DNA from: a virus | IMG/VR virus record: IMGVR_UViG_3300029437_000019 | Span: 1 to 41,797 of that record | Reading direction: 5' to 3' (one strand) | DNA: 41,797 nt | Part shown: positions 9,908 to 37,971 of the stretch, piece after piece | Layout: the number at the start of each line of letters is the position of its first letter | Position numbering within the stretch: the first letter of the stretch is position 1 | Program-made: the position numbers and the translations under genes | Notes under the pieces: model-generated | Told to the model about the DNA's origin: nothing | The model's input: only the letters and a program-made list of their open reading frames with translations | Databases searched by the model: none

Positions 9908-10828
9908 ATGCCGCCATCTCCGAGGCTGCCGTTTCCTTTGCCTGATCAGCACGTCACAACGCTGAACATCGACGCGGATGCGGCCGGTGCCCGAATTTTA
10001 TATCCTTTTCTTCCGGAATATGTCGGCCTCCGGAACCCATATAACGGGGAGATCATCCGATCTTCTGACGATTATGAGCGTTATCTCCGAGAACATTGCT
10101 ACTATAACCGCTGCGCCCGTGAGTTTCACTCCATACGCATCCGTCTGGAGGACGCACTCGACGAAAATCTCCAGCTTTCAGTAACCGCCAGCAGAACGGA
10201 AAAGGTAATTGAGAAGAACAGAGAACTTCTTTCCAAAAATGAATCTCTCCGCAGAGAGAACCAACAGCTCAACACTCAGCAGGAAAAACTTCTCTCCTCA
10301 GTTTCTAAACAAAAGCGCGAACATCGTATTTTTGTAAGTATCATTGGTGTCCTTGCTTCTGTAATTGTCCTTCTTTCGGTCTTGCTTATCTGCGGTTCGT
10401 CCTCGCGTAGTTTCTCTTCTACTTCACCCGGTTCTTCTACTTCTTTCACTACTTCCACTTGCCGCTATATAGGAAATTCTAAAACAAAAACAATTCATGA
10501 GCGCACTTGTTCTCATCTTCCCTATAAAGAGTACCGTGTTGAATTTCAAAGTTTGGCAAAGCCCATCCTTGAAGGATATTCACGTTGTCAGTATTGCCTT
10601 GGCGGGAGCGGCCAGTCCGGCACTTCCGCTTCATCCGCTTCATCTACTTCTTCCATTAAACAGACCGAACCGGCAGAGCACCGCTATATTGGGAATAAAT
10701 CAAGTAAAAAGATTCATACCCCGGATTGCAGTTTTTTGCCAGATAAGAACAACCGCATCTATTTTGATGATCTTGACGAAGCGCTCGACAACGGCTACGA
10801 GCCTTGCAAGAAATGCCACCCGCGTTAA
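9908..10828 (+). CDS. Membrane-anchored protein with two C-terminal Ada-like ('sunset') Zn-binding domains
   Basis: 306 aa. Coiled-coil, then TM segment IFVSIIGVLASVIVLLSVLLICG, then Ser-rich linkers. Two copies of the YIGN..SKK.H...C..LP....R..F.....A...GY..C..C pattern. AT-richer than its flanks. Confidence 0.7.
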   Translation: MPPSPRLPFPLPDQHVTTLNIDADAAGARILYPFLPEYVGLRNPYNGEIIRSSDDYERYLREHCYYNRCAREFHSIRIRLEDALDENLQLSVTASRTEKVIEKNRELLSKNESLRRENQQLNTQQEKLLSSVSKQKREHRIFVSIIGVLASVIVLLSVLLICGSSSRSFSSTSPGSSTSFTTSTCRYIGNSKTKTIHERTCSHLPYKEYRVEFQSLAKPILEGYSRCQYCLGGSGQSGTSASSASSTSSIKQTEPAEHRYIGNKSSKKIHTPDCSFLPDKNNRIYFDDLDEALDNGYEPCKKCHPR

Positions 10829-11234: not shown

Positions 11235-11840
11235 ATGACCGCATATCAGAAGCTGTACCCCAAATTTGAATCCTACCCCGAGGCCGTCCGTCAGGCAAAG
11301 CGTCTCAAGGGCCTCACCATCGACGCGCTGGTCGAATCGGCCGGCGTTTCCTATTCCTCCGTGTCCCGCCTCTGCGACGGCACGCAGCTCGATCCCAAGC
11401 TCTATAATTCCGTCGCCCTCTGCAAAGTCCTCGGTCTTTCCATGGACGAGATTTTCGGTCTATCCGCGTCCGAGGCCTGCGCCGAGGAATTGCAGGCGAA
11501 GCTCCACTCCGCCGAGCTGGGAAACGCCCACCTTGCCGAGGAAAACAAGCGTCTGCACGAGGTCAACCGCCTCCGCGCCGAGCAGCTTGCCGCCCGCGCC
11601 CCCGTTATCTATATTCTTCTCTTTGCCTGCGCGCTCCAGTCCTGCGCCTTGATCTTTTATCTGTTCGTCGATGCGCAGATCAAGGATGCCGGCCTCATCC
11701 GCTTCGGCGATATCGGCTTTGTTGCGTGGCTGCTGATCGGCCTGATTCTTGCGGCCATCGGCTCCTGCGTCTGGGCGACCATGCGCTTTGCCCGAAAATC
11801 CAGTAAAAGGAGCGCTGATCATGCACGTCCCCGAGCCTAA
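11235..11840 (+). CDS. Membrane-anchored XRE-type HTH regulator (HTH, coiled-coil, 2 TM)
   Basis: AAAGGAG precedes the ATG at 11235. HTH reads LKGLTIDALVESAGVSYSSVSRLCDG. TM segments are VIYILLFACALQSCALIFYLFV and IGFVAWLLIGLILAAIGSCVWA. Overlaps the int start by 20 nt. Confidence 0.7.
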   Translation: MTAYQKLYPKFESYPEAVRQAKRLKGLTIDALVESAGVSYSSVSRLCDGTQLDPKLYNSVALCKVLGLSMDEIFGLSASEACAEELQAKLHSAELGNAHLAEENKRLHEVNRLRAEQLAARAPVIYILLFACALQSCALIFYLFVDAQIKDAGLIRFGDIGFVAWLLIGLILAAIGSCVWATMRFARKSSKRSADHARPRA

Positions 11841-12849
11841 AAAAACGCCCTCCGGCTGGCGCATCCAGCTGCGCATCGGCGGCCAGTCCATCCCCGTCAC
11901 CGCCGATACGCCCAAGGAGTGCAAGCGTCAGGCCGCCCTCATCAAGGCCGAGGCGCAGGCCGCCGCAAAGCCCGTCAAAAAGTGCAGCCTCACCCTCTCT
12001 CAGGCCATCGACGCCTATATTGCCGAGCGCTGCAATATTCTTTCTCCCTCCACGCTTCGCGGCTACCGCATTATTCAAAAGCATCGTTTTTCCTCCACCA
12101 TGAACCGGCCGCTCTGCAAAATCAGCCCTTCCGAATGGCGCAGCATTCTCAACGATGAGCTTTCCGTCGCTTCCCGCAAGACAGTCAAGAACGGCTGGGG
12201 GCTTGTAAAGTCAGTATTAACCGCGCATGGCATTTCCGTTGATGATGGCATTCTGGTTTCCAATCCACGCAAAAGGCGTGATGCTAACTGGCTGGAGCCG
12301 GACGAGATCAAAAAGTTCGTCGCCGCCGCAGCCGACGACCCCCTCTGCGTCCCAATGCTCCTTGCCCTCATGTCCATGCGCATCTCCGAGATTGATGCGC
12401 TCCGCTGGGAAAACATCCCTCCACACTCCGAATTTATCAGCACCTCCGGCGCCCGTGTCCTTGATGAAAACAACGAATATGTTCTCAAGGCCGAGCAGAA
12501 GAATCTGGAATCTGACCGAACTGTCCCTCTGTTGATTCCCGAACTTCGCGCAGCCATCCGCAGAGACTGGAAGCCAGAAGGCAAGGTTCTCCCATGCAGT
12601 CAGGCAACGCTTCGCAACGCCGTCTCCCGTACCTGTGACCGCGCCGGTGTCCGGCGCGTCACCGTCCACCAGCTCCGTCATAGCTTCGCCTCCCTCTCCG
12701 CGCACCTTCGCATCCCCGCAGAGATCTCCATGGAGATCGGCGGCTGGAGTAACGACAAAATCATGAAAGAGATTTATACCCACATCGCCCGCTCCGACAT
12801 CGAGCGCTATAAAAACGAAATGTGGAAATTCTATAACTCTTCCGAGTAA
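11821..12849 (+). CDS. int: Tyrosine recombinase / phage integrase
   Basis: ATG at 11821 sits 8 nt after AAAGGAG. Catalytic pattern: ..MRISEIDALRW.., VHQLRHSFAS, GWSNDKIMKEIYTHI. attP lies immediately downstream. Confidence 0.9.
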   Translation: MHVPEPKKTPSGWRIQLRIGGQSIPVTADTPKECKRQAALIKAEAQAAAKPVKKCSLTLSQAIDAYIAERCNILSPSTLRGYRIIQKHRFSSTMNRPLCKISPSEWRSILNDELSVASRKTVKNGWGLVKSVLTAHGISVDDGILVSNPRKRRDANWLEPDEIKKFVAAAADDPLCVPMLLALMSMRISEIDALRWENIPPHSEFISTSGARVLDENNEYVLKAEQKNLESDRTVPLLIPELRAAIRRDWKPEGKVLPCSQATLRNAVSRTCDRAGVRRVTVHQLRHSFASLSAHLRIPAEISMEIGGWSNDKIMKEIYTHIARSDIERYKNEMWKFYNSSE

Positions 12850-12869
12850 ATGCTTATGAAAACGCTTAT
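12846..12869 (+). repeat. Arm-type repeat, copy 1 (GTAAATGCTTATGAAAACGCTTAT)
   Basis: 22/24 identical to 13077-13100. The two copies flank the tRNA-like core. Confidence 0.6.
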
Positions 12870-12915
12870 TCATTTTTCAAGCCATTGGAAACACTGGCTT
12901 TTTCACACATCCTCT

Positions 12916-12983
12916 GCGGGTTCGAATCCCTCATCCCCTGCCAATATTCAAAGCCTTGCAAACATTGAGTTTGCAAGGCTTTT
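12916..12983 (+). other. attP core: tRNA 3'-end fragment plus its terminator
   Basis: GCGGGTTCGAATCCCTCATCCCCTGCCA (12916-12943) reads as T-loop, 3' acceptor strand and CCA. No matching 5' half lies upstream. A perfect 14-bp hairpin follows. Confidence 0.65.
12950..12983 (+). terminator. Rho-independent terminator (tRNA-gene type)
   Basis: AAAGCCTTGCAAAC (12950-12963), loop ATTGA, GTTTGCAAGGCTTT (12969-12982), then a T-rich tail. Confidence 0.75.
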
Positions 12984-13076
12984 CCTTTATTTGCAACGGA
13001 TCGCGGGCTTTTGACTGTATAAAAACTTGGAATAAAGGTACTGTATAAAATACACAAATACCTCAAATCATGAACA

Positions 13077-13100
13077 GTAAATGCTTACGAAAATGCTTAT
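13077..13100 (+). repeat. Arm-type repeat, copy 2 (GTAAATGCTTACGAAAATGCTTAT)
   Basis: See 12846-12869. Confidence 0.6.
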
Positions 13101-13104
13101 GCCT

Positions 13105-13488
13105 TTACTCTCTCCCGATGCTCTCCAAGCACCGCCGGATCGCGTCTCTCGTCGCATCATCATCCGTGCCTTGCATCAGCTCCCGGAGCTGCTCTCTCAT
13201 TTCCCCGGTGCTGCGGCTGTAGTGGCCTCTGACATAGTGCATCCCGCGTCTGGCGTAGGAGCCTCCGCGTCCATAGCTTCCGCGCATATCTGCCTGCCAT
13301 TCGCCGTCTCGACTGTAGCCCTCGCGGCTATAGCCATCCGCAGAGCTTCCCTCGCGCATCATGATCTTGTCGATGTTCTTGATCGTGCTTGCCAGCTTGT
13401 GCAGCACGTCCAGATCGCCCGCGCTCAGATTCTCCTTTCGGGAATACCGTTCCAGTTCCTCGCAGAGCTTTTCTCTCAGTTCGTACAT
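13105..13488 (-). CDS. Gly/Tyr/Ser/Arg-rich protein, unknown function (cargo next to attP)
   Basis: 127 aa. GGGGGAAGGA precedes the ATG at 13488. The central stretch reads ..SSADGYSREGYSRDGEWQADMRGSYGRGGSYARRGMHYVRGHYSRS.. Confidence 0.65.
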   Translation of the reverse strand: MYELREKLCEELERYSRKENLSAGDLDVLHKLASTIKNIDKIMMREGSSADGYSREGYSRDGEWQADMRGSYGRGGSYARRGMHYVRGHYSRSTGEMREQLRELMQGTDDDATRDAIRRCLESIGRE

Positions 13489-13502
13489 TGTCCTTCCCCC
13501 TT

Positions 13503-13925
13503 TCAGGAAATCCGGTCAACGGTCATGTTGGAGTTTGCGAAGCTGACCGCCTGTGCGCTGGTGTTCTCCATTGCCACCGTCACGCAGCAGCACTTCGGCA
13601 CCTCCACAATCGCGCTGACGTAGATGTTGAAATAGTTCTCCACCGCCGCCGGGGTGACGGTCGCCGTCGCGCTGTTCAGCGCCTCGCCGTTGATTGCCAG
13701 CGCCGCCGTAATCGCTCCCACTGCGCCCCCGGTCGGAATCGCAATGTTCGCGCCGAACGCCACGCGGAATCTCGCCTTGCACTGCTGGGTCAGCCCCCGC
13801 AGCGTCACGATCCCCGCGCCATCTCTGTGAACGATGCACGGCTTACCGGTGACCGCCGTTTCCGTCAGCGGCACATTCTGCCCTGCCGGTACCGTCACAA
13901 TGCTTGTATTTACAAATTCTGCCAT
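13503..13925 (-). CDS. Small beta-rich protein, possibly BclA-C-terminal/C1q-like fold
   Basis: The ATG at 13925 (MAEFVNTS..) follows AAAGGAG. The hydrophobic/Gly pattern resembles exosporium BclA C-terminal domains. This is recollection-level similarity only. Confidence 0.6.
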   Translation of the reverse strand: MAEFVNTSIVTVPAGQNVPLTETAVTGKPCIVHRDGAGIVTLRGLTQQCKARFRVAFGANIAIPTGGAVGAITAALAINGEALNSATATVTPAAVENYFNIYVSAIVEVPKCCCVTVAMENTSAQAVSFANSNMTVDRIS

Positions 13926-13941
13926 TCTTGTTTCTCCTTTC

Positions 13942-13972
13942 AAAAAACTACGGCGGGACGATTGCCCCGCCG
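13942..13972 (-). terminator. Rho-independent terminator / attenuator between cargo genes
   Basis: On the - strand: CGGCGGG, 8-nt loop, CCCGCCG (13951-13972), then TAGTTTTTTG (revcomp of 13941-13950). Confidence 0.6.
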
Positions 13973-14006
13973 CGTTCGCTCAGTATCCGCAATGCGGCGG
14001 ATCATT

Positions 14007-14022
14007 TTCGTGAGTTCACGAA
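14007..14022. promoter_or_regulatory. Palindrome TTCGTGA-GT-TCACGAA (9-bp arms if extended to 14005-14024)
   Basis: Read directly, in the 99-nt gap between the 239-aa and 146-aa genes. Confidence 0.45.
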
Positions 14023-14042
14023 AAAGCTGAAATGTTTGGTTG

Positions 14043-14762
14043 TCAGGCGCAGTTGCAGTTGCCGCAGCCCGCGTACTGGAACGGTGCCGGAACGCTGAAG
14101 GCCGGAACCGGGCGCGGATTGTTGAGCGCAAACTGGCTTCCGATGTAGCTCTTGAGGCCGTCCGTCTGAACCGCCTGCGAGGCCGCAAGCTGATAACCGA
14201 ACAGAAGCTGATTCTGTTCTGCAATCTTCGCGTCCTTCGCTGCCATCTCCTGCGCGGTCAGGCGCTGCTCGATGCTGCGCATCCCGCAGTTGAACGCCTC
14301 GATGATGTCGCGGGTGTTGTTCTGCATCAGGTTGCGCGTCTGGCAGTCCTGCGTCGCCATGTCGTAGCGCACCTGCGCGATGGCCTCGCGGTTTTCGCAG
14401 CAGCAGTTGGAAATCTGCTGCTGCAGCGCAAAGAGCTGCTGCATGAACTGCATCTGCGCGTTGCACCGTGCCAGCTCTGCGGCCGAGAAGCCGTCCTTGA
14501 TGCTGTTGTTCAGCGCGAAGGTGCTGTCGCAGATCCCGTTGTTGATGCCGTCGAGCTTGCGCTCGATGTTTGCAAAGTCGGAAGCCAGCACATAGCCGTC
14601 CGAAACGCCGCCATTGTTCCCGCCGAAGCCGTTACGGCCCCAGCCGAACAGGAACAGCACGATGATCCAGATCCAGCTGTCTCCGAACATTCCGCCGCCG
14701 TATCCGTTGTAGGCCGGCTGCACAGGCATCGTCACCATGGGGTTTCCTTCCTGAAAAGACAT
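14043..14762 (-). CDS. Cys-rich membrane/coiled-coil protein, unknown function
   Basis: 239 aa. The N-terminal GYGGGMFGDSWIWIIVLFLFGWG resembles tiny YjcZ-type TM proteins. Also contains CCCENREA and QDCQ, and ends in GCGNCNCA. Confidence 0.65.
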   Translation of the reverse strand: MSFQEGNPMVTMPVQPAYNGYGGGMFGDSWIWIIVLFLFGWGRNGFGGNNGGVSDGYVLASDFANIERKLDGINNGICDSTFALNNSIKDGFSAAELARCNAQMQFMQQLFALQQQISNCCCENREAIAQVRYDMATQDCQTRNLMQNNTRDIIEAFNCGMRSIEQRLTAQEMAAKDAKIAEQNQLLFGYQLAASQAVQTDGLKSYIGSQFALNNPRPVPAFSVPAPFQYAGCGNCNCA

Positions 14763-14792
14763 TTCGCTTTTTCTCCTTTCTCAAATTTTTAT

Positions 14793-14817
14793 ATCAATTC
14801 GTGGCCACGAGATTGAT
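14793..14817. promoter_or_regulatory. 25-nt near-perfect palindrome ATCAATTCGTGG/CCACGA(G)ATTGAT
   Basis: Read directly, immediately upstream (on the - strand) of the RBS of the 239-aa gene. Confidence 0.4.
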
Positions 14818-14818
14818 C

Positions 14819-15034
14819 TCACAAAAAAGCCCGGAACTGCTGTGCCATTTCCTGGAGCTGATCAAGCTGCTGCTGATTGATTTTCCCGGACTGCACCAGC
14901 TTCATGACCTCCGCCTTCGGGTCACCCTGAAAATTCGCCTGGAACTGCCGGAAGTCCTGCACCATCCTCTGGAACTGTCCCATTTGCCCGCCCATGCGGT
15001 TCCCGCCGAGCTGCTGAAACAAGCTATTGCTCAT
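14819..15034 (-). CDS. Small Gln-rich protein (71 aa)
   Basis: GGAGGGAAA precedes the ATG at 15034. Sequence reads MSNSLFQQLGGNRMGGQMGQFQRMVQDFRQFQ... Confidence 0.6.
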   Translation of the reverse strand: MSNSLFQQLGGNRMGGQMGQFQRMVQDFRQFQANFQGDPKAEVMKLVQSGKINQQQLDQLQEMAQQFRAFL

Positions 15035-15362
15035 CCTGCTTTCCCTCCATCAGCGCCGATATTCTCTCCTCCAGCGCCTTCAATTCTTCCCGTGTCGCGT
15101 ATTCCTCCGTCTTTTTCTGCGGCTGCGCGGTCCTCTCCGTGTAGTCAAAGATTCTGAGCGGCATCGGCATCCCGCTCTGATCCGTCGATTTGATGTAGAA
15201 TGAATGCTTCTCGCTGTCCATCAGCAGCACGGAATTCCCCGCCGCCACCATGTACGCCTTTGCCGCCTCCTCGCCCTGCACCCACAGCAGCCCATTCTGG
15301 TGCTGCTGATACGGTCTTTGCTGCGGATAGTAGCTGTTGTTTGGATAGTAATAATCAGGCAT
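15024..15362 (-). CDS. Tyr/Gln-rich N-terminus plus small beta domain, possibly GerQ-like
   Basis: GGGAGGA lies 8 nt before the ATG at 15362. N-terminus is MPDYYYPNNSYYPQQRPYQQHQ. The segment ..AAGNSVLLMDS..RIFDYTE loosely resembles the GerQ C-terminal domain (recollection only). Confidence 0.6.
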   Translation of the reverse strand: MPDYYYPNNSYYPQQRPYQQHQNGLLWVQGEEAAKAYMVAAGNSVLLMDSEKHSFYIKSTDQSGMPMPLRIFDYTERTAQPQKKTEEYATREELKALEERISALMEGKQDEQ

Positions 15363-15747
15363 CGTTTATATCCTCCCTTGTCCAAAAATAGATTGGTGTC
15401 TCCCCGCTGGAATCCCAGCTGTCAAATAGCTGTCCGTCCTCCACGCATACCACATGGCCGGATAATGCCAGGATAAAAACGCCGGTTTGATGTTCTTTTG
15501 CAAAATCCGCCACCGTGTAGCACTCCTGGCAGTCGTCCTTCACAATCTCCCGTCGAAAGCCCTGCTTCTTCAGATACGCGCCCCACACCGCATTGCTCGA
15601 CGGCATATCCGCCTCCAGATTCCCCTCGATGCAAAGCCCCCAGTAAACGCTGTCCCAGTCCTTTCCGGTCGCCTTGGCGATGGCCCGCACCGTGCAGTCG
15701 CCTACCGCCTTTCCGCGCGGATTCGGCTGAAAAAACGAATATGCCAT
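15355..15747 (-). CDS. Putative papain-like cysteine peptidase (Cys-His-Asp)
   Basis: ATG at 15747 follows GAAGGAAGG. Candidate triad: GDCTVRAI (Cys), LSGHVVCV (His), FDSWDS (Asp). Confidence 0.5.
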   Translation of the reverse strand: MAYSFFQPNPRGKAVGDCTVRAIAKATGKDWDSVYWGLCIEGNLEADMPSSNAVWGAYLKKQGFRREIVKDDCQECYTVADFAKEHQTGVFILALSGHVVCVEDGQLFDSWDSSGETPIYFWTREDINDA

Positions 15748-15823
15748 ACCGAACACCTTCCTTCTGCGTCCAGTATGGCATATTCTTTTTTCGCTTGTGG
15801 GTCACTTAGGGGTCATTTGCGGC

Positions 15824-18800
15824 TCAGTTCCACGGCATCTGCCACCATCTCACATTTTCGTACTCCTGCCCCATGATCCAGTCCTTCTGTTCTGCCGTCA
15901 GGCTCAGGCTGTCGATCAATTCAATGACCTTTTCCTTCCTGCTGCCGGAGATGCTCTTTCCGTCCTCGTCCTTGTCCGCGTGCAGCTCCTTCGCTCTTGT
16001 CCAGAATTCGGCATAGACCTTCGCCGGAATTCCTTCCGTCTGCGCGGCCCTGAATTTCTCCGCCGTCGAGCCGGTATATACCGCTCCCAGCGCCGCATAG
16101 GCCTCCTTGTCCGATAGCCCGGACTGCATGACCGCCTGCGCCTTGAACGTCTGGTTCAGGTCATTCTCTCCCGCAAGGTCACGCGCTTTTTTCTCTATCT
16201 TCAGCGCGTTTCCCGCGCTCACGCCCGCTGCGGTCATTTCGTTGTAGAATTTCGCAGACTTCGGCACAAGTTTCTCGTCGATTGCCTCGCGCTGTTTCCC
16301 GGAATACTTCTTCCCGTCCAGCCAGTTTGCAAAGTCCGCCGCCCATTCTTTTTCGCTTCTCCCGGCGCCCAACTCTCCGCGCTTGTCGAGAATTTCGGAA
16401 ATGTCCTTCCACTTCATCCCGGCGTCCATCAGCTTGTCAATCTCGTCGTTTTTCCCGCTTTCGACCATCGCGCTGTAGATTCTCATTCTCTGCCCGTCGG
16501 TCAAATTCTCCTGCGCTGCCAGCTCGGCGCGTGCCTTTTTGCGGTGCTCCTCCTTCTGCTGCAAGCGCTTTGCCTTTTCCTCTTCGCTCTCGTCGTCCTT
16601 TGGCTCCGGGATGTCGGAGTAATTCATTGCATCGTCCATCCGCATCATCAGACCGTAGAGCGCATACCCGTTCACGCCCTCCTCCCGCAGCTCGTTCCAG
16701 AGCTGCGTCTGCTTTGCCGTCAGCCCGGAGTCGTCCCCGGCATAATACGCTTTTGCCTCCGGTGATGCGTTTACGCCGAACAGCGCCGTCCGGATGTAGG
16801 TCATCGGATCGTCCATATCCAGCGGATATTGCAGTCTCTTCTTTTCTCCGTAGCCCTTGGTTTTGCCGCCCTCGATCAGCGCCTTCACGCCGAAGCCGGT
16901 CTTGCTGAGCTGCCGCCCGCCCGGAACCAGCTGTGCAAGCAGCTTTGCCACAGCCTCCGCCGATGCGCCGGAGAAGAACCCGTCCGTTTTTATTGCATCC
17001 GCAATATTCTTCCCGCTTCCAAAGATGTCCGGCATCGGCATCGTCCTGTCGCCCACGCCAAACAGGCCGGACAGATTCGATGCAAACGGAATTTCATTCA
17101 TCAGGTTGTACCCCGTGTCCGCAAGCGCCGCCGACGTGTCAAACGTTTCCCGTTCCTCCGGCACGTCAAAGATTTCCGATCCGACTACTTTGTTGATCAG
17201 GCTCTTCATGTAGTCGTTTGTTGAGAGGCCCTTTCCGGAGGCAAAGAAGTTTGCCGTCAGTCCTGCAATGTCCAGCGGTGCGGGCGTGCCGCCGTAAAGC
17301 TCATCCGTCAGCCGGTTCAGCACGAACGCCGCAATCAGGTACCCGAAGATCGTCCGCAGCAGCATCCGCGCCGCACTCTTTTTCCCGTTCTTTTCCGCCT
17401 CTCTCTGAATCTCCAGCGGCATATCCTTCATTACGAACTCCACGGTGTTCAGCGGCTCGATCTGGAAGAGGTTCGCCATTCTTTTCCACATTCCCTTGCT
17501 GTGGAACGCCAGCGGCTTCGCCCCCTTTGTCCGGTCTCCCATCAAGGCTCTGCCGTACCAGTCCGCAAACCGCATGGCTTCCTCGTGGTTTTTCCCATTC
17601 CGGATTGCATCCCAGTATGCCGCGCGCGTTGCAATCGTCGAGAGCATCGAATCCATGAATTCCGCCGGTGCAAACATACCGGAAATGAACTTGTCCGTCC
17701 CGCTCTGCACCAGATAGTCAATCCCCATCTTTCCGGTCAGGAAGTCGATCTCCTTTCGGAATTCTCCCAGCTTTCCCGTGCAGAACTCCTGCGTCGCTTT
17801 CAGGATCGCCCGCTGGCTTCTCGTCGCCTGAAGCATCGCAAGTTGGGCGCTCTGGTTCAGAACGGAGGAGAGGTTTCCGGCCACATTGGCCTTTGCAAAG
17901 GCTCCCACCAGCTTGTTGCCGATGTTCAGCCATTCGCGCCCGCCCATGTATTCCGTGCCTCGGTCGCCGCCGAACTGTTTTCCGGCCAGAATATCCCCGT
18001 AGTTTTTCAGCCATACCACAAGGTCGGAATATCTCGTGTTGTTCTGCGCTTCTCCGAGCATTTCCTCAATCAGCTTGTCAAACGCCTCTGCAAGCTCCGC
18101 GTTGGAGTATTCTCGCATATCGTTTCCGATGCGCCCCATCTCCTGCAGGTATTCCACTTTTTCTTCCACGTTCCCGCTTCTGGACATATCCAGCGCCTTT
18201 TCCAGCGTCGCGGTAAAGCTCCCCCGCAGACCTTTTCTCAGATAGCTTTCCGCCGCGCGTATTTTCTGGATGTCGTCCGTGTGGAAAAGGATATCGCCGA
18301 GATACTGCACGTAGTTCTGGAACGCTTCTTCAATGTCATACGCCGTCTTGTCGCCCTTTCTTTCGAGGAAGAACGGATTCCACCGCTTCTGTGGCCGGAA
18401 CGTTTCCGTTCTGCCCGCAATCTCCGCCGGAAGTCTTGTCACCGTTTCGTCCTTGATCCCCAGCGCCTTCCACAGATCGTCCAGTTCCTTTTGTACGGAG
18501 TTAAACCTTTCCGCAATCGGAATGTGCGGCGTATAGCCCTTAATTTTTCCGATCGGCTGCATCCCGTGCGCAACAAGGAAGTCGTTGATCGCCTCAAAGT
18601 ACAGATCAAATTTTTCCCTGTATTCCTTCATTGCATTCTCGCACTTTACCTTGTCTATCCCCTCCGCGTCCTTGCCGTTGATCCATTGCGCGTACTTTTC
18701 CACGATCTTTGCTTCCTCGCTGTTCAGCGCGAATTCAATCGCCTCGTTTTCCACGCTTTCGCCCCGCGCAACGTTTTCCGCCGCGCTGATCAGGTCTTTG

Positions 18801-21800
18801 CTTCTGTCGCTCTCCTGCGCCTGCTGCACATACCCTTCCACATCCAGCATCATATGCACATAGGCGCTCTCCGTCTGGTTGAGTTCCGACTTTTCCCCCT
18901 TGCTGTCCGTGAATTTCCGCACGTCGTCAAACTGTCCGTTCATCCACCGGTAGCTTTCCGCCGTGTTCCTTACCACCGGCGCAAAGAGGTAGTTGTAGAT
19001 TTCCATCCCGCGCTCCTCGCCAAAGATATTTACCATTGACCGCAGCGCTGTCCGGTAGTTCAGCACCAGCAGCTTCTCCGGCTTAAAGAGCGACGGGTCA
19101 GCCTGAATCTCCTTCTCCGTCGGGAACAGGTCAATCATCTTGTAAAGCAGTCCGTCCCGGATCTCTCCCTTCCGGATCTGGATCAGATCCTCTCCTGTCA
19201 TGCGCTCGTTCAGGTACAGCGCCGCCAGCTGAGATACGACCTCCGGCCGGCACTTGTCCGGCAGCCTGTAGTATTCCGATCGCCCCGATGCGATTTTCTT
19301 CGCCTCCCGAAGCTCCTGCTTTGTCGCATCCCATTTTTTGGCCGTTTTTTCTATCTGCCGCTGGATCGACCGCCGGGTTTCCGCTCCCTTTCGCATTGCG
19401 TCCACCTGGCTGTATTCCGCAATGCCTCCGTCGATCTTTACGCCTGCTTTTTCCAGCGCCGGGGATCCCTTAAAGCTCTCCTTCGGTGTCCCCTCCGGAT
19501 GGATCCCCGCCGCAGTCAGGTCTGCAAAGGTCTTCTTCGATGCCTGCAATTTTTCCAGCGCGGCTTTCGGGCTGATGGAGCTTTTCGGTGCATCTTCCTT
19601 TGTAATGGTCGCCTTCCATGTCCCGTTTGCCCGGTTCGTCAGCTCCCACTTTTTCCCGGTCATTGCCTGCAGGAGTGCCAGCGCCTCTCCCGGCTGCAAG
19701 CTCGTCCCTCTGGAATACATCGGCTTCCCCTTCCCGTATGGGAAGTCCGGTTCACTGGTTCCAAAGCTCTCCAAATAGGCCTTTTGCACGCCCTCCAGCC
19801 GTTCCTGCTTTTTCTTCTCGTATTCCTCCGCCGTCCGCACGATGCTTCCCTTGCGTTCTTCCTCGGCTGCCGCTCTGGTCTCTGCCTTCTGCCTTGCGTC
19901 CGCCTCCGCCGTCTGCGCGTCGTACCAGTTGTAGAATTCCGCAAGATCCTCCGCGTCCGCCGCGTCCTCCAGCTTCTCCTGCGGCATACTCGCAAGCAGC
20001 GCCGCCGTCTCCTGCACGCTCGGCTGATATACCGGGTCAACCGCCGTCAGCAGCTTCGTCTCCATGTCCTTCACGCTTGCAAGCCCGGTCTCCTTGTTCG
20101 TGAACAGCACCGTGAGCATGCCCTTCTTCGTGCTCTTGTCCAGCACAAGGCCGTAGTTGCCCATGTCCGCCGCCTTGACCCACGTCCGCAGGGGGTAGAC
20201 CTGCCGTCCGTTCAGGAAGGGGAAGCCGCGCTTCTGCGCCGCCGCCTCCGAGATCGTCCACGGCTCCGTGATTCCCTCCGGCTTTTTCGCCGGTCTTTCT
20301 CCGTCCGCCTCGCGGATGAGCGATTCCAGCCGCTCGTCCGTTTCCGTTCTTGCCTGCGCTTCTCTTGCTTCCGCGCCTGCCTGCTTTTCATAGCGGTTCA
20401 GCAGCTTTTCAAATTCCTGTCTCTGGTATTCCAGCTGCTCCTCCCGCTTCAGCCCGAAGCGCTTTTCGTTTTCCTCCATGCCCTTTCGCAGGCTCATCCG
20501 CGCATCCTTGCCCTTTTCCGCCGCGTCCACTATCTGCCGCAGCATCTCCGAGGCGATGTATTCCTCCGTGAATTCCGAGGGGTACGCATCCGCCAGCTCC
20601 AGCATATGCACGTCCACGCTCCGGTCGCTCGCCTTGTCCGTGAAGTAGATTCCACTGCTGAATGCCTTCTTTCGGAAGTCTTCCCAGTCGTCGCCGAAGT
20701 CCTCCCGGATTCCCTCCGGCACAAAGATTCTTCTTCCCCTCAGAGCCTCGCGGATCTCTCTGTAGTAGTCGTCCGCCGGGAGCGTTGCCGTGCCGAGGTT
20801 CATCAGCGCTTCAAAAAGGTCGTCCTTTTCCGCCTTCAGCAGCTTCACGCCCTGCTGCATTTCCGCCATCGGCGCCTCTAAGAGCTTCCCCAGCGCCTCG
20901 TTGTCGTAGCTCTGCACCTCAAACAGCTTTTTCAGCCCGCCGGTCAGCTCCCTTTTGTAGCTCTCCTTCGCGGCCTGCTTCGCTTCTTCGGCCTTTACTA
21001 TCGCCGTTTCCGCGCGTTCCTGCGCCCGCTGCGCCTTTTCTGTTGGAGTGAGGGAAAATTTTTGGGGTGTGCTGGATGCTGCCTGAGGCAAGTCTCTGTT
21101 TAACTGATAGCCGCCGCGAAGCGCTTGTTCCAATTGAGCATCGCTCCATCCGTACTTTTCTTTGAAAAGCTCCTTCCCTTTCTGGTATTGCTCCATCCAG
21201 TCTTCAATGACACGCACAAACTTAACCGTATGTACGTCCAGAACAGGTTCCCCGTCTGATCCTATGGAAATTGCTTCGCCTGTCACTTCTACGAGATCCC
21301 CCGGATATTTTGGGTATTCCCATACCGAGTACCCGTCTTCCTTTTCTCCGGTCGCATGGTTTACAGATCGTCTTATCTTTCCGCCTTTTATATAATCAAT
21401 TTCCTTTTCCGACTTTATTATTCTGTAAAAATACCCATCCTTCCTTAACCCCACCATTGAATAAATTTCACTCTCAACCGCACCTTTAATTTTCTCACTC
21501 GTGTTATTGTTTGCTGAGCTTCTGTTTAACGCCATTCTCCCCCCTGAGAGGATATAATTCGGAGTTTCGTCCGACGCGAATTTTGCTCGGTTCGGCAATC
21601 CCGTCACGACGAGAGTATTTTCATCACCGTTTTTTGGCACCTCAATTGAGCCGAGGTTATAGTATTTGCCCTCCTCCCACGTTCCGTCCGGGTTTCTTTC
21701 CCAATATTCCTGTGATATCAGCTCCACCGTGTCCCCTGGCACGGCTTTATATACCTGTCCTTCCCCGCGTCCGTAGACACGGATTCCTTCGTCCGCTTTT

Positions 21801-24800
21801 TCTTCGTCTGTAAGCAACCGTTTACTTTCCGTCTGCTGTCCTAACGAGAACTTCACCCTCTGAGCATAGTACCCCTCCGGATTTCTCTCTTCTCCGAGCA
21901 CCTTCAGATCGTCCTCGTTCAGATTCCGAATGGTCGTGAGATTTTCATTTTCCCTCTTGACATTCTCAGCGCTTTGTGATACATTGTCGTATGGAATCCG
22001 AGTCTTGTTTACCTCTGTGTGCGATCCTTCTTGATCGTCCCTGAGAGAAAGGCCGGATTCCTCTTTTTTTGCCTCCAGCAGAATTTTGTGCATCCAGAAT
22101 TTATTTTTTTCTCTGCTTCCTCTCACTATAATCTCGACTTCATATTCTTTATTGTCAATTTTTGCCATACTAGTGAGATACACATATTTCAGATCACTGC
22201 TTGGATTGTGGTAATTTGCCACATTGTTCATTCGCACCGTCGCGCTCTTTATCAATTCCGGGATCTGTTGTATTGTTGCTATCTTCAGTTTTTTCAGTTT
22301 ACTTGGCAGCGTCTCAAACCGGCTTCCCTTGCCCAACGTCTCGCGGATTCCGTCCTTTGTGATGGCCACTGTCATGCCGGATTCCTGATTCACAACAACA
22401 TTGTTTCCGTCCGCGAAGAATCCGTCCTCAGTCAGCTTTTTCAATACCGCTTTCTGCACACCGATGTAGTCATTGATTGATTTTATCCCGTAGTCCTTCA
22501 TCACGTCCGCCACAGAATACTGCACACTGCTCTCCGTCAGCAGCGCCCGATCCCATCCGAGGTCGGGCATTTTGTTTTTCCGTTCCTCTGCTGTCAGCTT
22601 CCGGCGGCCGGCAGTCTCTCTGGCCTCGATCTCTCCTGCAGAATTGATGTACTGCCCCAGATAGACCTCGCCGGGGTTTTCCATCTGCCGTTTCAGATCG
22701 AGCAGCTTCCCGAACCACTCCTTCGGATAGAGCTTTTCATAGAGTCTGTCGTGCTCCGCGTCCATCCGGTCGTATTTCTCCGCGTCTCCTGGCTTTTCGG
22801 AGTAGAACAGGCGCTCCAGCTCCCCGTCGATCTCCTGATAGCGGATGTAGTCGTTCTGTTCTTCCTTTGTCAGGCCGTTCAGAATGTCGCTGTACTCCCG
22901 CTGCAAGCGCTCCTGCAACCTGTCTCCGCTTTCATAGTCGCGCCGCGCCCAGTATTCCGGGCTTGTTCCGCCCTGGAATCCCTCGTATTTCTGGATGATG
23001 TGCTGAATCTCGTGCAGCAGCGTCTCCGGCCCCTTGCCGAACAGGCTGTCGGAGAGAATAATCGAGCCGTTTCTTTTGTCAAATTTTCCCTTCACGCCGG
23101 GATCCAGCTTTTCAAAGCGCAGCGTCGTGTGCCGCAGCAGAGGATACGCCTCATAGAGTTCGTCGTGCTTCAGGAAATCCTGAAGCTCGTATTTTTTCTC
23201 CCATACCCTGTCGCTGTATTCCTCCTGAAGCGCTTCCATTTCCGCTTCCTCCGCCTCTGTCAGCGGTTCTCCGCCCTTTTCAAAGCTGTCGCCCCATTTG
23301 TCTGTCAGTTCTTCCAGTCTGCGGTATCTCGGCTCGCCCAGCAGCCTTGCGTCCCCGTTCGGTCGGAATTCCGCCTTGCTGTCGTCCACCTCAAACCGCC
23401 ACTGGCCGTCTGCGCCGCGAATCCATCCGGTTTTCCGCCAGATTTCCTCCCGGCTTGCGCCGTCCTCCTCCATGGCCTCCGCAAGTGCAAGGCTCTTGGA
23501 GCTTGCTGTCTTGGCCTTCGGGCCTGCCATACTCGCCCTCGTGCCGCCCCTCCGGGCGGCTTTTTCGTTCCCGTCGCTGTCCTGCGTCCGGCGCACAGCG
23601 GAAGAAACCTCCGCCGCCGGTTCCCGGCTCTCCGTCTCCGACAGGAATTTCCTTGTTGCCTCTCGGATTCTCCGGAAGCTCTTTTCTCCGAAGCGGTTCA
23701 TGCCCGCCGCTGCGTCCGCCAGGATTTCCTCATAGATCGCCTCCAGATCGTCCCCATATACCCCGCGGTACGCCTGTAGATACTTGTCGACGATCTTCTC
23801 CGCTTCCTCGTTCGTCACGTCCTGCATCGCCGCCTCCACCGCGTCGATCAGATTAACGTTCCCGTTCCTCACGCTGTCGTGGAACAGCTCGTGCTCCACC
23901 AGAACCTCCGGCTCGTATTCCGCGCTGCTCACGCTCACGATGATTCGCCCGTCGTCCGGGTTGTACACCGCATCCACGTTCCGGTATTCTCCGTCCCTGT
24001 CCTTCACGGACATTGTGCCCACTACAAATGTCGTTTTCAGGCCTCTTTCCTTTGCCCTTCGCTGCGCCTGCTGCATTTCTCCGGTGTACCTCCGCACCGG
24101 CACCACGCCGACCAGCACATCCGGGTCGCCGTCTGCGGTCAGCTTGTCCATTGCCGTGTCCTGCGCAATGCCCTTGAAGCGCTCTACTCTTTCGTCGAGC
24201 CTCGTCTTGCGAGATACTCCTCCTTCCACGCCTTCAGCTTCGCCCGCTCCTCCTCCGTCACCGGCGCTTCGTGATCCGCCTTCTGCCACGCCGCCAGTCT
24301 GTCCTTCGGAATCCACACGCTCATTCCGCCCTTGGTTTTCACCAGCACTCTCTGGTTGCTCATTGCTCATTCCTCCTTCGGTTTCCTGCGCCGCCGGCGC
24401 ATTGATTTCCTCTGCCTGTTCGACCGTCTCTGCCGCGCTCTGGGTGGTCTCCTGCGCCATCTGTGGCTCTTCCTGCACAGTTTGTTCCGCTTCCGGTGTG
24501 TTTTCCTGTCCGGCGCGTTCCGCCGCTCTCTGCGTCCGTTCTTCCGCTCTGGCAGCCTTTTCCTGTTCCAGAATGTCAAGCCGCTGCTGTGCATCTCGCG
24601 CCGCATAGATGTCCTGCGCCGCCTCGCTGCCTCTCAGGCTGTCGATCATTTCCCGCTCCGAAAGAATCCGGATGTCCAGCGCCCGGTCCGTCAGCAGCGC
24701 CGCCTCGCTCGTCTGGTTCGCAAGGATGGCGTTCTGGAAATCCGCGTCCACAAAGTCGTTGTCAAAGAAGCCCTCCGGCGCTTCGTATCGCCGGAAGCTG

Positions 24801-36976: not shown

Positions 36977-37225
36977 TCAGTTTTTCATGTGTCTTTCTGC
37001 TATCTGCATTTTCTCTACGATCTTCGGCAGCCGCCGCTTGATCGTCGCCTGTGCAAGATAAACTTCCGCCGCCACATCCGCCTGCGGCAGCTTGTCGATG
37101 TAGTAGAGCTTTGCAATTCGCTCGTTCTCGGCTCCTACATTGGCCTGCTCAATTACCCGCTCCATCTCGCCCCTTGTCAGCCCTTGCAGCGCGGGCGGCA
37201 GGCTGATGCGGGCCATCGGTGCCAT
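36977..37225 (-). CDS. Sigma-70 region-4-like / small HTH transcription regulator
   Basis: 82 aa. Sequence reads ..ERIAKLYYIDKLPQADVAAEVYLAQATIKRRLPKIVEKM.. The start overlaps the endolysin stop (TAATG). Confidence 0.55.
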   Translation of the reverse strand: MAPMARISLPPALQGLTRGEMERVIEQANVGAENERIAKLYYIDKLPQADVAAEVYLAQATIKRRLPKIVEKMQIAERHMKN

Positions 37226-37971
37226 TACTTGAGCAGGTACGTCCAGCTATTTTTCCCCAGCAGCCCATCCACGCCGAGGCCGTGCTCCGCCTGCATCTTT
37301 TTCAGCCCCTGCTCCATCTTCGCGCCGAACAACTTGTCCGTCGCCGGGATATTCCAGGGATAATAGCCCTTGTCCTTCATCAGCAGCATGGCCGCGCGGA
37401 CATCGTTGCCGCTCATGCCGCGCTTGAGCATTCTCAGTTCCATTTTGACTGTTTCCTCCTTTGTCGGTGTGGGTGTGGGGCTGATTTCCTCCGCCTCGTA
37501 CTGCGGACGGATGATCATCATGATCTCCGACGGATAGCGGGTTCTGATCTGGACTTCGCCACCGTTGGAATTGTTATCGACGGAGGTATTGCCCTCACAG
37601 GTCTGATAGCTGCCGTTCGCGTTTTTGGCGTCGATAAATCCAATGTGGTCGCCGCTACCGTTGTGGTTCCAATCGAAAAGGGCAAGGTCGCCGTGACGCC
37701 CCTGATCTTTCGAGACTACCAGCCCCTTGGATTTTGCCCAGTCACGGACGGTATCGACCCACGCGGTCTTTTTTCCGTCGCAGAACAGGTTGGACGCGCC
37801 TGCCATGCGGAAGGTGTCCCAAACGAATACGACACACCACGCATAATTCCCGCCACTGACTTCATGCCCGTAGTAGTGGGTGTTGAAGATGACGTTGTTG
37901 CTATATGCTGGGCTTTCCTTCGTACCGACATAAGACTTTGCGAGTTTCATGATCTCGCTTGCTTTTGCCAT
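37225..37971 (-). CDS. Endolysin: CHAP domain plus C-terminal peptidoglycan-binding domain
   Basis: Catalytic-type NYAWCVVFVW (Cys) and GDHIGFID (His). C-terminal ..HGLGVDGLLGKNSW resembles PG_binding_1. Confidence 0.85.
   Translation of the reverse strand: MAKASEIMKLAKSYVGTKESPAYSNNVIFNTHYYGHEVSGGNYAWCVVFVWDTFRMAGASNLFCDGKKTAWVDTVRDWAKSKGLVVSKDQGRHGDLALFDWNHNGSGDHIGFIDAKNANGSYQTCEGNTSVDNNSNGGEVQIRTRYPSEIMMIIRPQYEAEEISPTPTPTKEETVKMELRMLKRGMSGNDVRAAMLLMKDKGYYPWNIPATDKLFGAKMEQGLKKMQAEHGLGVDGLLGKNSWTYLLK

Follow-up and report, generated by a model that had tools for sequence, protein, structure and literature searches.

A conserved six-gene block, probably a portable late module, in phages of gut and rumen Clostridia

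The subject of this work is a block of small genes in the viral genome deposited as IMG/VR virus record IMGVR_UViG_3300029437_000019, whose complete stretch of 41,797 nucleotides (nt; positions 1 to 41,797) is referred to below as the window. The window is a temperate phage genome in which the late genes lie on the minus strand in the order collagen-repeat tail fibre, CHAP endolysin, major capsid, TerL, portal, a 344-amino-acid (aa) open reading frame (ORF) and a 3910-aa ORF, followed by the block. The initial annotation, which was made from the sequence alone, had described a cassette of five genes next to the phage attachment site (attP) and suggested that they were lysogenic-conversion genes remodelling the spore or cell surface of a Clostridia host or, alternatively, novel virion surface or ejection components. 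All five ORFs are indeed present on the minus strand: p112 (15024..15362, 112 aa; phrog_21718, E=2e-24), p71 (14819..15034, 71 aa; phrog_22984, E=8e-16), p239 (14043..14762, 239 aa; phrog_16490, E=2e-36), p140 (13503..13925, 140 aa; phrog_20016, E=4e-56) and p127 (13105..13488, 127 aa; phrog_28802, E=7e-8). Because each of them has a Shine-Dalgarno sequence 5-10 nt upstream, because their GC content at third codon positions (0.73-0.85) resembles that of the other late genes (0.69-0.84) and because all match PHROG families of unknown function (E 7e-8 to 4e-56), they can be regarded as real, conserved phage genes. The gene that had been described as encoding 146 aa is real, but its length had to be corrected, as nearly all of the homologues have 139-141 aa and start with MAEF, and therefore the true gene spans 13503-13925 and encodes 140 aa. 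The extent of the cassette had also been drawn too narrowly, since the upstream 'peptidase' gene, p133 (15355..15747, minus strand, 130 aa from the ATG at 15747; phrog_3754, E=1e-30), belongs to the same block and is its first gene. The p112 gene shares 8 nt with p133 and 11 nt with p71, and a leader (13926..14031, minus strand), which was delimited using a terminator scan, RNAalifold and a covariance model, lies upstream of p140.

Related loci were collected by tblastn and hidden Markov model (HMM) searches with the window proteins, and the order p133-p112-p71-p239-leader-p140-p127 was conserved among them. The six genes occurred in the same order and on the same strand in 82/82 of the first loci (80 from IMG/VR and two GenBank phages), the order was found again in 60/60 evaluable loci of an independent DNA-motif sample, and it was intact in 124/164 loci overall, a set that includes one genome per GTDB species. 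Loci in which the HMMs missed members usually hold divergent equivalents, as at L158 and L120. A seventh gene of about 105 aa often follows the block and belongs to an unknown family in 75 of the first 164 loci, while the seventh position is held elsewhere by a small HExxH protein with a weak M78/SprT-like similarity. The p140 family comprises at least 7945 and the p239 family at least 8000 clusters at 90% identity. The host taxa named for the loci are Oscillospiraceae, Lachnospiraceae, Ruminococcus, Acutalibacteraceae and their relatives, and the few implausible host bins are probably mis-binned phage contigs. A tblastn search of phage GenBank records matched only 15 records, among which Butyrivibrio phage Ceridwen was the sole isolate. 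Insertions between the block members, which leave the order undisturbed, include a C5 cytosine methylase (L123, 6825-7937), a DUF4417 gene (L161, 5477-6160) and an HNH endonuclease (L001, 18785-19336); an HNH endonuclease is inserted in the block of the siphovirus Dulem virus 33. Scans of the six proteins against Pfam, NCBIfam and PADLOC (the latter two at E<=10) gave nothing meaningful, with 0 matches to the PADLOC anti-phage defence models, and profile searches against PDB sequences with p140, p239, p133, p112 and p127 returned chance matches alone (E>0.1). No study of these six proteins was found in the literature. The cysteine content of p133, p239 and p140 is 8-9 times that of the other late proteins, and a signal-peptide-like N-terminus was found in none of the six.

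The block is carried by siphoviruses, by the podovirus-like phage with a giant polyvalent protein that is represented by the window, by Lachnospiraceae prophages, by large TAG-recoded phages and by Ceridwen, and its surroundings differ among them. In the window and in a second lineage (L069-L081), it follows the giant polyvalent protein. In the siphoviruses of Oscillospiraceae, a Hol44 holin, an Amidase_3 endolysin and an 80-aa protein consisting of sigma70 region 4 only lie upstream of it, and the sigma gene is followed by two terminators, a 43-aa ORF, the block, a 105-aa gene and a serine or tyrosine integrase. The 80-aa protein (PF08281, E=1e-9; L029 5413-5652, with equivalents such as that of L179 from 8814) sits between the endolysin and the block, and it is followed by the two terminator-like hairpins and the 43-aa ORF, which overlaps the start of p133. 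A third context, with the portal and Phage_min_cap2 (minor capsid protein 2) genes before the block and the scaffold and major capsid genes after it, was observed in Dulem virus 35, at L118, L123 and L161 and in Lachnospiraceae prophages that include one in the complete chromosome CP143549; the blocks in this context hold the C5 methylase or DUF4417 gene insertion. Cultured bacteria that carry the block are Lachnospiraceae bacterium JLR.KK009, to which CP143549 belongs, and strain 1XD21-87. In the large phages, the block comes after tail-fibre genes and is followed by a convergent replication module (PolIII-alpha, NrdD/NrdG, dUTPase), and no integrase was found within 10 kb of the block in these TAG-recoded genomes. 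Butyrivibrio, the host genus of Ceridwen (B. fibrisolvens), is non-spore-forming. In Ceridwen, the endolysin, two small genes and a terminator precede the block and there is no integrase; this siphovirus, for which only a lytic cycle was seen, has been judged to be probably virulent (PMC7372960). Across all contexts, a recognised integrase lay within 3.5 kb downstream in 64/117 loci with enough sequence, and 53/117 were without one.

The large phages (L165-L167, L175 and L177, metagenome contigs of 65-207 kb from the European Nucleotide Archive) contain the block together with in-frame TAGs in structural and replication genes; one p112 homologue among them holds 8 TAGs, which fits TAG being read as Gln, and the NrdD gene of L175 is interrupted by homing endonuclease genes of the GIY-YIG, HNH and LAGLIDADG types. 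As the recoding is genome-wide in these phages, it is uninformative on the timing of block expression.

The holin-endolysin module is a mobile unit in its own right. It is about 88-93% identical at the nt level between phages that share nothing else in the compared 16 kb, and this homology ends exactly at the lysin stop codon, which marks the block as a separate module. The comparison was made for L179 versus L195, L198, L210, L215, L222, L223, L236, L239 and L256. Phages with the same lysis module and an integrase directly after the lysin also exist, and the block may be located elsewhere in them. In a metagenome-assembled genome of Oscillospiraceae (L085, 6600-9100 of a 120-kb contig), a degraded prophage lies between bacterial genes and a tRNA-Ser; it retains the leader and complete p140 and p127 genes together with a p239 whose N-terminus is truncated, and an ISL3-like transposase fragment lies on the opposite strand. 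The retention of p140-p127 in this remnant may be due to chance or to selection.

The leader between p239 and p140 is about 100 nt long and comprises a variable hairpin, a small covarying hairpin, a GAYAYTGA-like motif, a terminator hairpin and a ribosome-binding site (RBS). The terminator of the window, which lies between the 239- and 140-aa genes, is a GC-rich hairpin at 13950-13973 whose U-run stops about 10 nt short of the RBS, and further palindromes lie near it; the palindromes and the terminator or attenuator that had been noted at first sight are real and conserved. The covariance model detected exactly one copy, on the coding strand and at this position, in 50/88 sources (e.g., L001 17748-17851, L116 4368-4473 and L152 5356-5462), and the leader stays with p140 even where p239 is absent, as in L152, where p140 alone follows the endolysin; a copy is also present in the prophage remnant. 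In 48 sequences, 97.3% of the cells were paired and 13/15 pairs showed double changes, which was reached by 0/500 shuffles and compares with 38-62% in the slid controls, although the alignment had been fitted to the covariance model, which favours pairing. Rfam contained no family for the leader, the best match being freshwater-2 at 25.2 bits versus a threshold of 49.9 (E=0.59), and a search with nine further loci gave nothing except tRNAs at threshold. Judging from these sequence comparisons, the leader is a candidate for a new attenuator-type cis-regulatory RNA. A leader peptide starting from its ATG was considered and rejected, as neither the frame nor the ATG is conserved. A promoter scan returned a single sigma-70-like site, which lies across the p140 start codon and is unable to serve it, and this is no more than is expected by chance. 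With no usable promoter and a tight coupling of the genes, the block appears to be read by transcription from the upstream late genes. An inverted repeat with 24-nt arms (15731..15791, minus strand), followed by a T-run, lies between the giant ORF and p133 and covers the RBS and the start codon of p133. Read-through into the block would appear to be tuned or conditional, with p140 and p127 dosed separately.

On these grounds, we consider the block to be a portable late module and not an attP-specific moron that remodels spores, with a probability of about 0.85. It is well supported that the module is transferred whole among phages of gut and rumen Clostridia that are not otherwise related, that it is co-oriented and transcribed in line with the late genes, and that it is specific neither to attP nor to temperate phages nor to spore-forming hosts. 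The in-line late position, the tight coupling and the normal base composition argue against a classic moron, and lysogenic conversion of the spore surface fits poorly with a block that lacks a usable promoter, occupies varied positions, has no recognised integrase nearby in 53/117 loci and is present in Ceridwen. The distribution of the block is bounded by host clade but not by phage type or lifestyle, as is typical of functions directed at the host (such as lysis, exclusion or takeover) and not of parts fitted to a capsid or tail or of lysogeny-specific cargo.

The most conserved member of the block is p140, which is about 80% identical where the rest of the block is at 33-65% (p133 about 60%, p239 45-65% and p112 about 35%), and its Cys113-Cys114 pair is invariant. 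Its relatives form 922 clusters at 50% identity, and the best 150 of these all have 83-196 aa, most of them about 140, with no added domain. AlphaFold2 with a 74-sequence alignment gave a ten-stranded all-beta model with a mean predicted local distance difference test (pLDDT) of 93.3 and a predicted template-modelling score (pTM) of 0.86. In a Foldseek search of this model against PDB, 157 matches had E<=1e-3 and the top 50 were all of the TNF/C1q/BclA type, with template-modelling (TM) scores of 0.54-0.76. The best match was the C-terminal domain (CTD) of F-BclA (9H38, E=4.5e-7, TM up to 0.76), next were ExsF with the F-Anchor peptide (9H3D), ExsFA (7R1M), BxpB (8D02) and BclA-CTD (1WCK, 3TYJ), and below them EDA, 4-1BBL, C1q and the knobs of phage fibres and spikes. 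The match to ExsF/ExsFA/BxpB (9h3d, 7r1m, 7r5i, 8d02) covers the full-length fold at TM 0.63-0.76, and the TM-scores to TNF ligands (EDA) and C1q are similar to those for the exosporium proteins. The earlier guess of a BclA C-terminal or C1q jelly roll therefore holds at the level of the fold, and we are confident that the modelled p140 has a TNF/C1q-type jelly roll that resembles BclA-CTD and ExsF in fold only, its identity to the exosporium structures being 10-14% (11-14% for the ExsF type). The fold fills the whole 140-aa chain, with no leader or collagen GXY region. Against Pfam at E<=1, p140 gave no BclA_C (PF18573) and only a chance match to TagH_SH3, the precomputed Pfam annotation is blank for all 240 p140 homologues listed, and neither the exosporium-leader model nor any other NCBIfam model matched it at E<=10. 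The closest BFVD models, at TM 0.82-0.89, are uncharacterised proteins of 130-143 aa from gut sipho-, myo- and podoviruses, two of which are labelled 'BclA protein'. In sequence, p140 represents a new family within a known fold, and the phage ORFs that resemble it carry the automatic label 'BclA protein' and are unstudied. Its derivation as a copy of the knob of the window phage's collagen fibre was rejected (hhalign probability 0.15%).

The p239 protein has one hydrophobic helix from about residue 26 (AlphaFold2 helix 29-39) with Gly-rich flanks, and the remainder of the chain is made up of long helices (84-120 and 136-213) followed by a Pro-rich stretch and a C-terminus rich in Cys. Four of its cysteines (Cys78, Cys120, Cys122 and Cys140) are invariant, and three others (Cys121, Cys233 and Cys236) hardly vary. 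The protein is predicted to be a single-pass membrane protein, and in 134 sequences the N-side of the membrane helix contains about 0 Lys/Arg compared with 0.85 on the C side. Its AlphaFold2 model (118 sequences) consists of helices only and is unreliable at a pLDDT of 43.8. For p133, all of 19 sequences, with identities as low as 38%, share Cys18, His98 and Asp109 in a C39/CHAP-like spacing, on the basis of which the protein is probably a papain/C39-like thiol enzyme; there were no peptidase families among the Pfam matches of the 19 members at E<=10, and no PDB sequence match. The compositions that had been described for the other proteins are confirmed. The p112 protein has a Y/Q/P/M-rich low-complexity N-terminus, a small globular core (W27...D61-G64-P66) and a charged helical tail, p71 is Gln/Phe/Met-rich (24% Gln) with the conserved segments NPLF-ALGGG ... 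FQGDP ... LLQSGK, and p127, which comes after p140 in most loci, has N- and C-terminal helices around an Arg/Gly/Tyr/Ser-rich segment that is probably disordered. The family resemblances that had been drawn from these compositions were not borne out: 0/12 diverse p112 members matched GerQ (PF09671) at E<=10, where only low-complexity noise (YppG, DUF4912) was obtained, and p239 matched the YjcZ family neither in NCBIfam at E<=10 nor in Pfam at E<=1, so that the likeness is compositional only.

In the window, the block is preceded by the 3910-aa ORF (15824-27556, minus strand), which lies directly after the portal gene and the 344-aa ORF, contains the Pfam domains LPD23 (residues 1342-1397) and LPD3 (1718-1818) and has two HExxH motifs. 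It encodes a 'polyvalent protein' which, in view of its place after the portal, is probably packaged in the head and ejected. Its relatives, at seven loci, are few and close, and all of them occur with the block. On the other side, a tyrosine integrase gene (11749-12849) is convergent with the block, and a perfect 14-bp hairpin with A- and T-run flanks (12950..12982) acts as a bidirectional terminator between the two; this hairpin is kept at the end of the prophage remnant L085. A partial tRNA 3' end, which together with the hairpin occupies about 12915-12982, forms the attP core, in agreement with the attP-proximal position that had been assigned to the block of the window. At about 12915-12950, the minus strand reads TGGCAGGGGATGAGGGATTCGAACCC, which is a tRNA 3' end in reverse complement (GGGTTCGAATCCCTCATCCCCTGCCA on the plus strand), and integrated related prophages end at tRNA-Ser or tRNA-Leu genes (L085, L099, L088). 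A near-identical direct repeat, ATAAGC(A/G)TTTTC(G/A)TAAGCATTTACT, is present at about 13075-13101 and about 12844-12868, and these copies may be integrase arm sites. The endolysin gene (CHAP + PG_binding_1; 37225-37971, minus strand) lies between the tail-fibre and capsid genes, about 22 kb from the block, and the scans made showed no holin beside it. The lysogeny region contains a gene for a 306-aa protein (9908-10828, plus strand) with an Ada-type zinc-binding C-terminal domain (PF02805, E=3e-9), a coiled coil, one hydrophobic segment and a second similar Cys/His motif upstream in its sequence.

As for what the portable module does, we tentatively propose, at a little under even odds, a host-directed late accessory function in which its products would build a membrane-tethered, ExsF/BclA-like complex. 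The lack of signal peptides combined with one membrane anchor suggests that the assembly forms on the cytoplasmic side of the membrane or that the proteins act after lysis. The products would be made late in infection, in the cytoplasm, and p239 would insert into the cell membrane by its single helix, leaving its helical Cys-rich part probably in the cytoplasm. The ExsF trimer binds the Pro-rich N-terminal leader peptides of BclA and F-Anchor, and the N-terminus of BclA is cleaved (PMC12357932). By analogy with this docking, p140 could form a TNF-like trimer and hold a short partner peptide as ExsF/BxpB does, which might be the conserved Pro-containing N-terminus or the Cys-rich C-terminus of p239. 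In such a complex, p112, p71 and p127 would serve as adaptors or matrix, p133 and, in some phages, also the small HExxH protein would be maturation proteases, and the terminator-containing leader would set the dosage of p140 and p127 separately. The membrane-tethered assembly would then act on the host envelope in superinfection exclusion, in the control of egress or in a post-lysis function. A bolder form of this proposal, in which an exosporium-like kit with a new attenuator RNA builds an unrecognised late structure in or on the infected cell or the released particles, appears quite improbable. In that reading, the kit would be self-contained and shared by thousands of gut and rumen Clostridia phages of any morphology or lifestyle, and it would consist of an ExsF/BclA-type trimer docked on a Cys-rich coiled-coil protein anchored in the membrane, of low-complexity proteins as matrix and of a maturation protease.

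Several points weigh against the proposed complex. Within the block, p140 alone has a usable structural model (that of p239 has a pLDDT of 43.8), the interaction between p239 and p140 is deduced solely from the constant adjacency of their genes, the 'peptidase' assignment of p133 comes solely from three invariant residues with no HMM or PDB match, and the charge distribution of p239 only weakly favours an N-out, C-in orientation. In addition, the block adjoins genes for head-packaged proteins in three lineages, which a virion-internal role would fit as well, and both the retention of p140 and p127 in L085 and the sigma-region-4 gene and terminators before the block in one lineage would also suit expression in the prophage state.

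Such considerations lead to three rival explanations. According to one, which we regard as unlikely, the products are virion-associated: they would be carried in the head and delivered together with the DNA, p239 acting as a membrane pilot and p127 as a basic DNA-associated protein, or else p239 as shaft and p140 as knob would form a fibre. The block does lie within late genes and directly after head-packaged genes in the three lineages mentioned (Phage_min_cap2 in L118, L123, L161 and Dulem virus 35; the polyvalent protein in the window and in L069-L081), TNF-like knobs are common on phage fibres (the phi812 spike, the A-1(L) fibre, matches to 'fibritin' and to tail fibres), and the Gly-rich hydrophobic segment and long helices of p239 resemble proteins of the ejection or fusion type. 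However, the same block, with p140 about 80% identical, is found across differing structural modules, that is, in siphoviruses with a tape measure and tail tube, in a podovirus-like genome and in large phages, and since a part that docks to the capsid, portal or tail is not expected to be so exchangeable, the virion or ejection alternative that had been offered initially is weakened. Moreover, the block lies after the lysis genes and outside the virion module in many siphoviruses, and p140 is unlike the collagen fibre of the window phage and evolves slowly, unlike receptor-binding tips.

The second rival, in which the prophage would express the block as lysogenic-conversion cargo so as to remodel the spore coat, exosporium or cell surface of the Clostridia host, is in our judgement clearly improbable. 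In its favour are the best structural matches of p140 (BclA, F-BclA, ExsF/ExsFA, BxpB), the Cys-rich, Gln/Tyr-rich and protease-like partners that recall coat and exosporium chemistry, the absence of signal peptides as in coat proteins made by the mother cell, the attP-proximal position in the window with an integrase within 3.5 kb in 64/117 loci, the terminators that insulate the block and the sigma70 region 4-only gene upstream of it in one lineage, and the intact p140 and p127 of the decayed prophage beside tRNA-Ser. Yet the block also occurs in Ceridwen, a lytic-only phage without an integrase that infects the non-spore-former Butyrivibrio fibrisolvens, in large TAG-recoded phages that encode replication genes of their own and lack a nearby integrase, and inside the head modules of some prophages; it has neither a usable promoter nor a difference in composition, the GerQ, YjcZ, BclA_C and exosporium-leader HMMs all fail, and the TNF fold is common outside spores, with similar TM-scores for EDA and C1q. 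The third rival, a lysis-linked effector, seems no more convincing than the second, be it an envelope-degrading or egress device with p133 as the CHAP/C39-like catalytic part, p140 as a binding trimer and p239 in the place of a single-pass holin or regulator resembling T4 T, or a lysis-released cargo that is bacteriocin-like or binds to bacteria or to the animal host. The block usually occupies the site of the lysis genes, after the holin-endolysin or tail-fibre genes at the 3' end of the late operon, p140 with its leader alone directly follows the endolysin in L152, the Cys/His/Asp residues of p133 have a C39/CHAP-like spacing, and proteins without signal peptides could well be released by lysis. 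Small sigma factors and holin-like release are employed by toxin and bacteriocin loci of clostridia, and a sigma-region-4 gene precedes the block in one lineage. On the other hand, the phages concerned already have a complete holin and endolysin, their lysis module recombines independently of the block, the endolysin of the window is about 22 kb away, no lysin, holin or bacteriocin family was matched in Pfam, PHROGs or NCBIfam, and the strong purifying selection on p140 would be unusual for a weapon against variable targets.

Whatever its function, the block is among the more widespread uncharacterised gene sets of gut Clostridia phages and crosses morphotypes and lifestyles, and as far as the searches show, neither the module of six to seven genes nor its wide distribution nor its leader RNA has been described. 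Its role could reveal a new late function that is needed for infecting Lachnospiraceae and Oscillospiraceae, which are dominant and hard-to-study gut bacteria, and the leader would add a new cis-regulatory RNA. If the reading as an exosporium-like kit were true, phage modules and the surface layers of spores would appear to be linked in evolution. A cultured pair with the block exists in Ceridwen and Butyrivibrio fibrisolvens DSM 3071.

The portable module can be compared with several known systems. In phage P1, small accessory genes beside giant polyvalent proteins can serve the packaging of these proteins. The block of the window, which follows a 3910-aa polyvalent protein, recalls the P1 proteins Hdf, DarA and DdrA that accompany DarB, and also the polyvalent proteins of Iyer et al. 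(2017, PMC5512222); unlike the Dar system, most copies of the block have no giant protein nearby, and no similarity to Dar proteins was seen in any search. With the classic morons, such as lambda bor and lom or the streptococcal toxin genes between lysin and attP, the block shares its position in the late or lysis-to-attP region, its terminators and its exchangeability. It differs from them in having six to seven co-conserved, translationally coupled genes with no promoter of their own found and no deviant composition, as well as in its presence at other genome positions and in phages without a recognised integrase. The jelly-roll fold of p140 is the same as that of the TNF-like phage knobs, such as those of the phi812 central spike and the short fibre of cyanophage A-1(L), but p140 has no fibre shaft fused to it, shows high conservation instead of hypervariability and has a regulatory leader of its own. 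In comparison with the exosporium proteins ExsF/ExsFA/BxpB and the CTD of BclA and F-BclA from the Bacillus cereus group, which are its best fold matches (Foldseek E 4.5e-7 to 1e-5, TM 0.66-0.76), p140 has an identity of only 10-14%, gives no BclA_C or exosporium-leader match, and is phage-borne, with non-sporulating hosts included. Its neighbour p239 is an apparently alpha-helical membrane protein and thus unlike the collagen partners of the exosporium, and a p140 trimer with docking is suggested by analogy only. Like ExsF/BxpB, however, p140 is a stand-alone domain of about 140 aa without a collagen stalk (about 150-170 aa in the ExsF type), and its partners include Cys-rich and low-complexity proteins as well as a possible protease, a set that recalls the cleavage of the BclA N-terminus and its docking on ExsF (PMC12357932).

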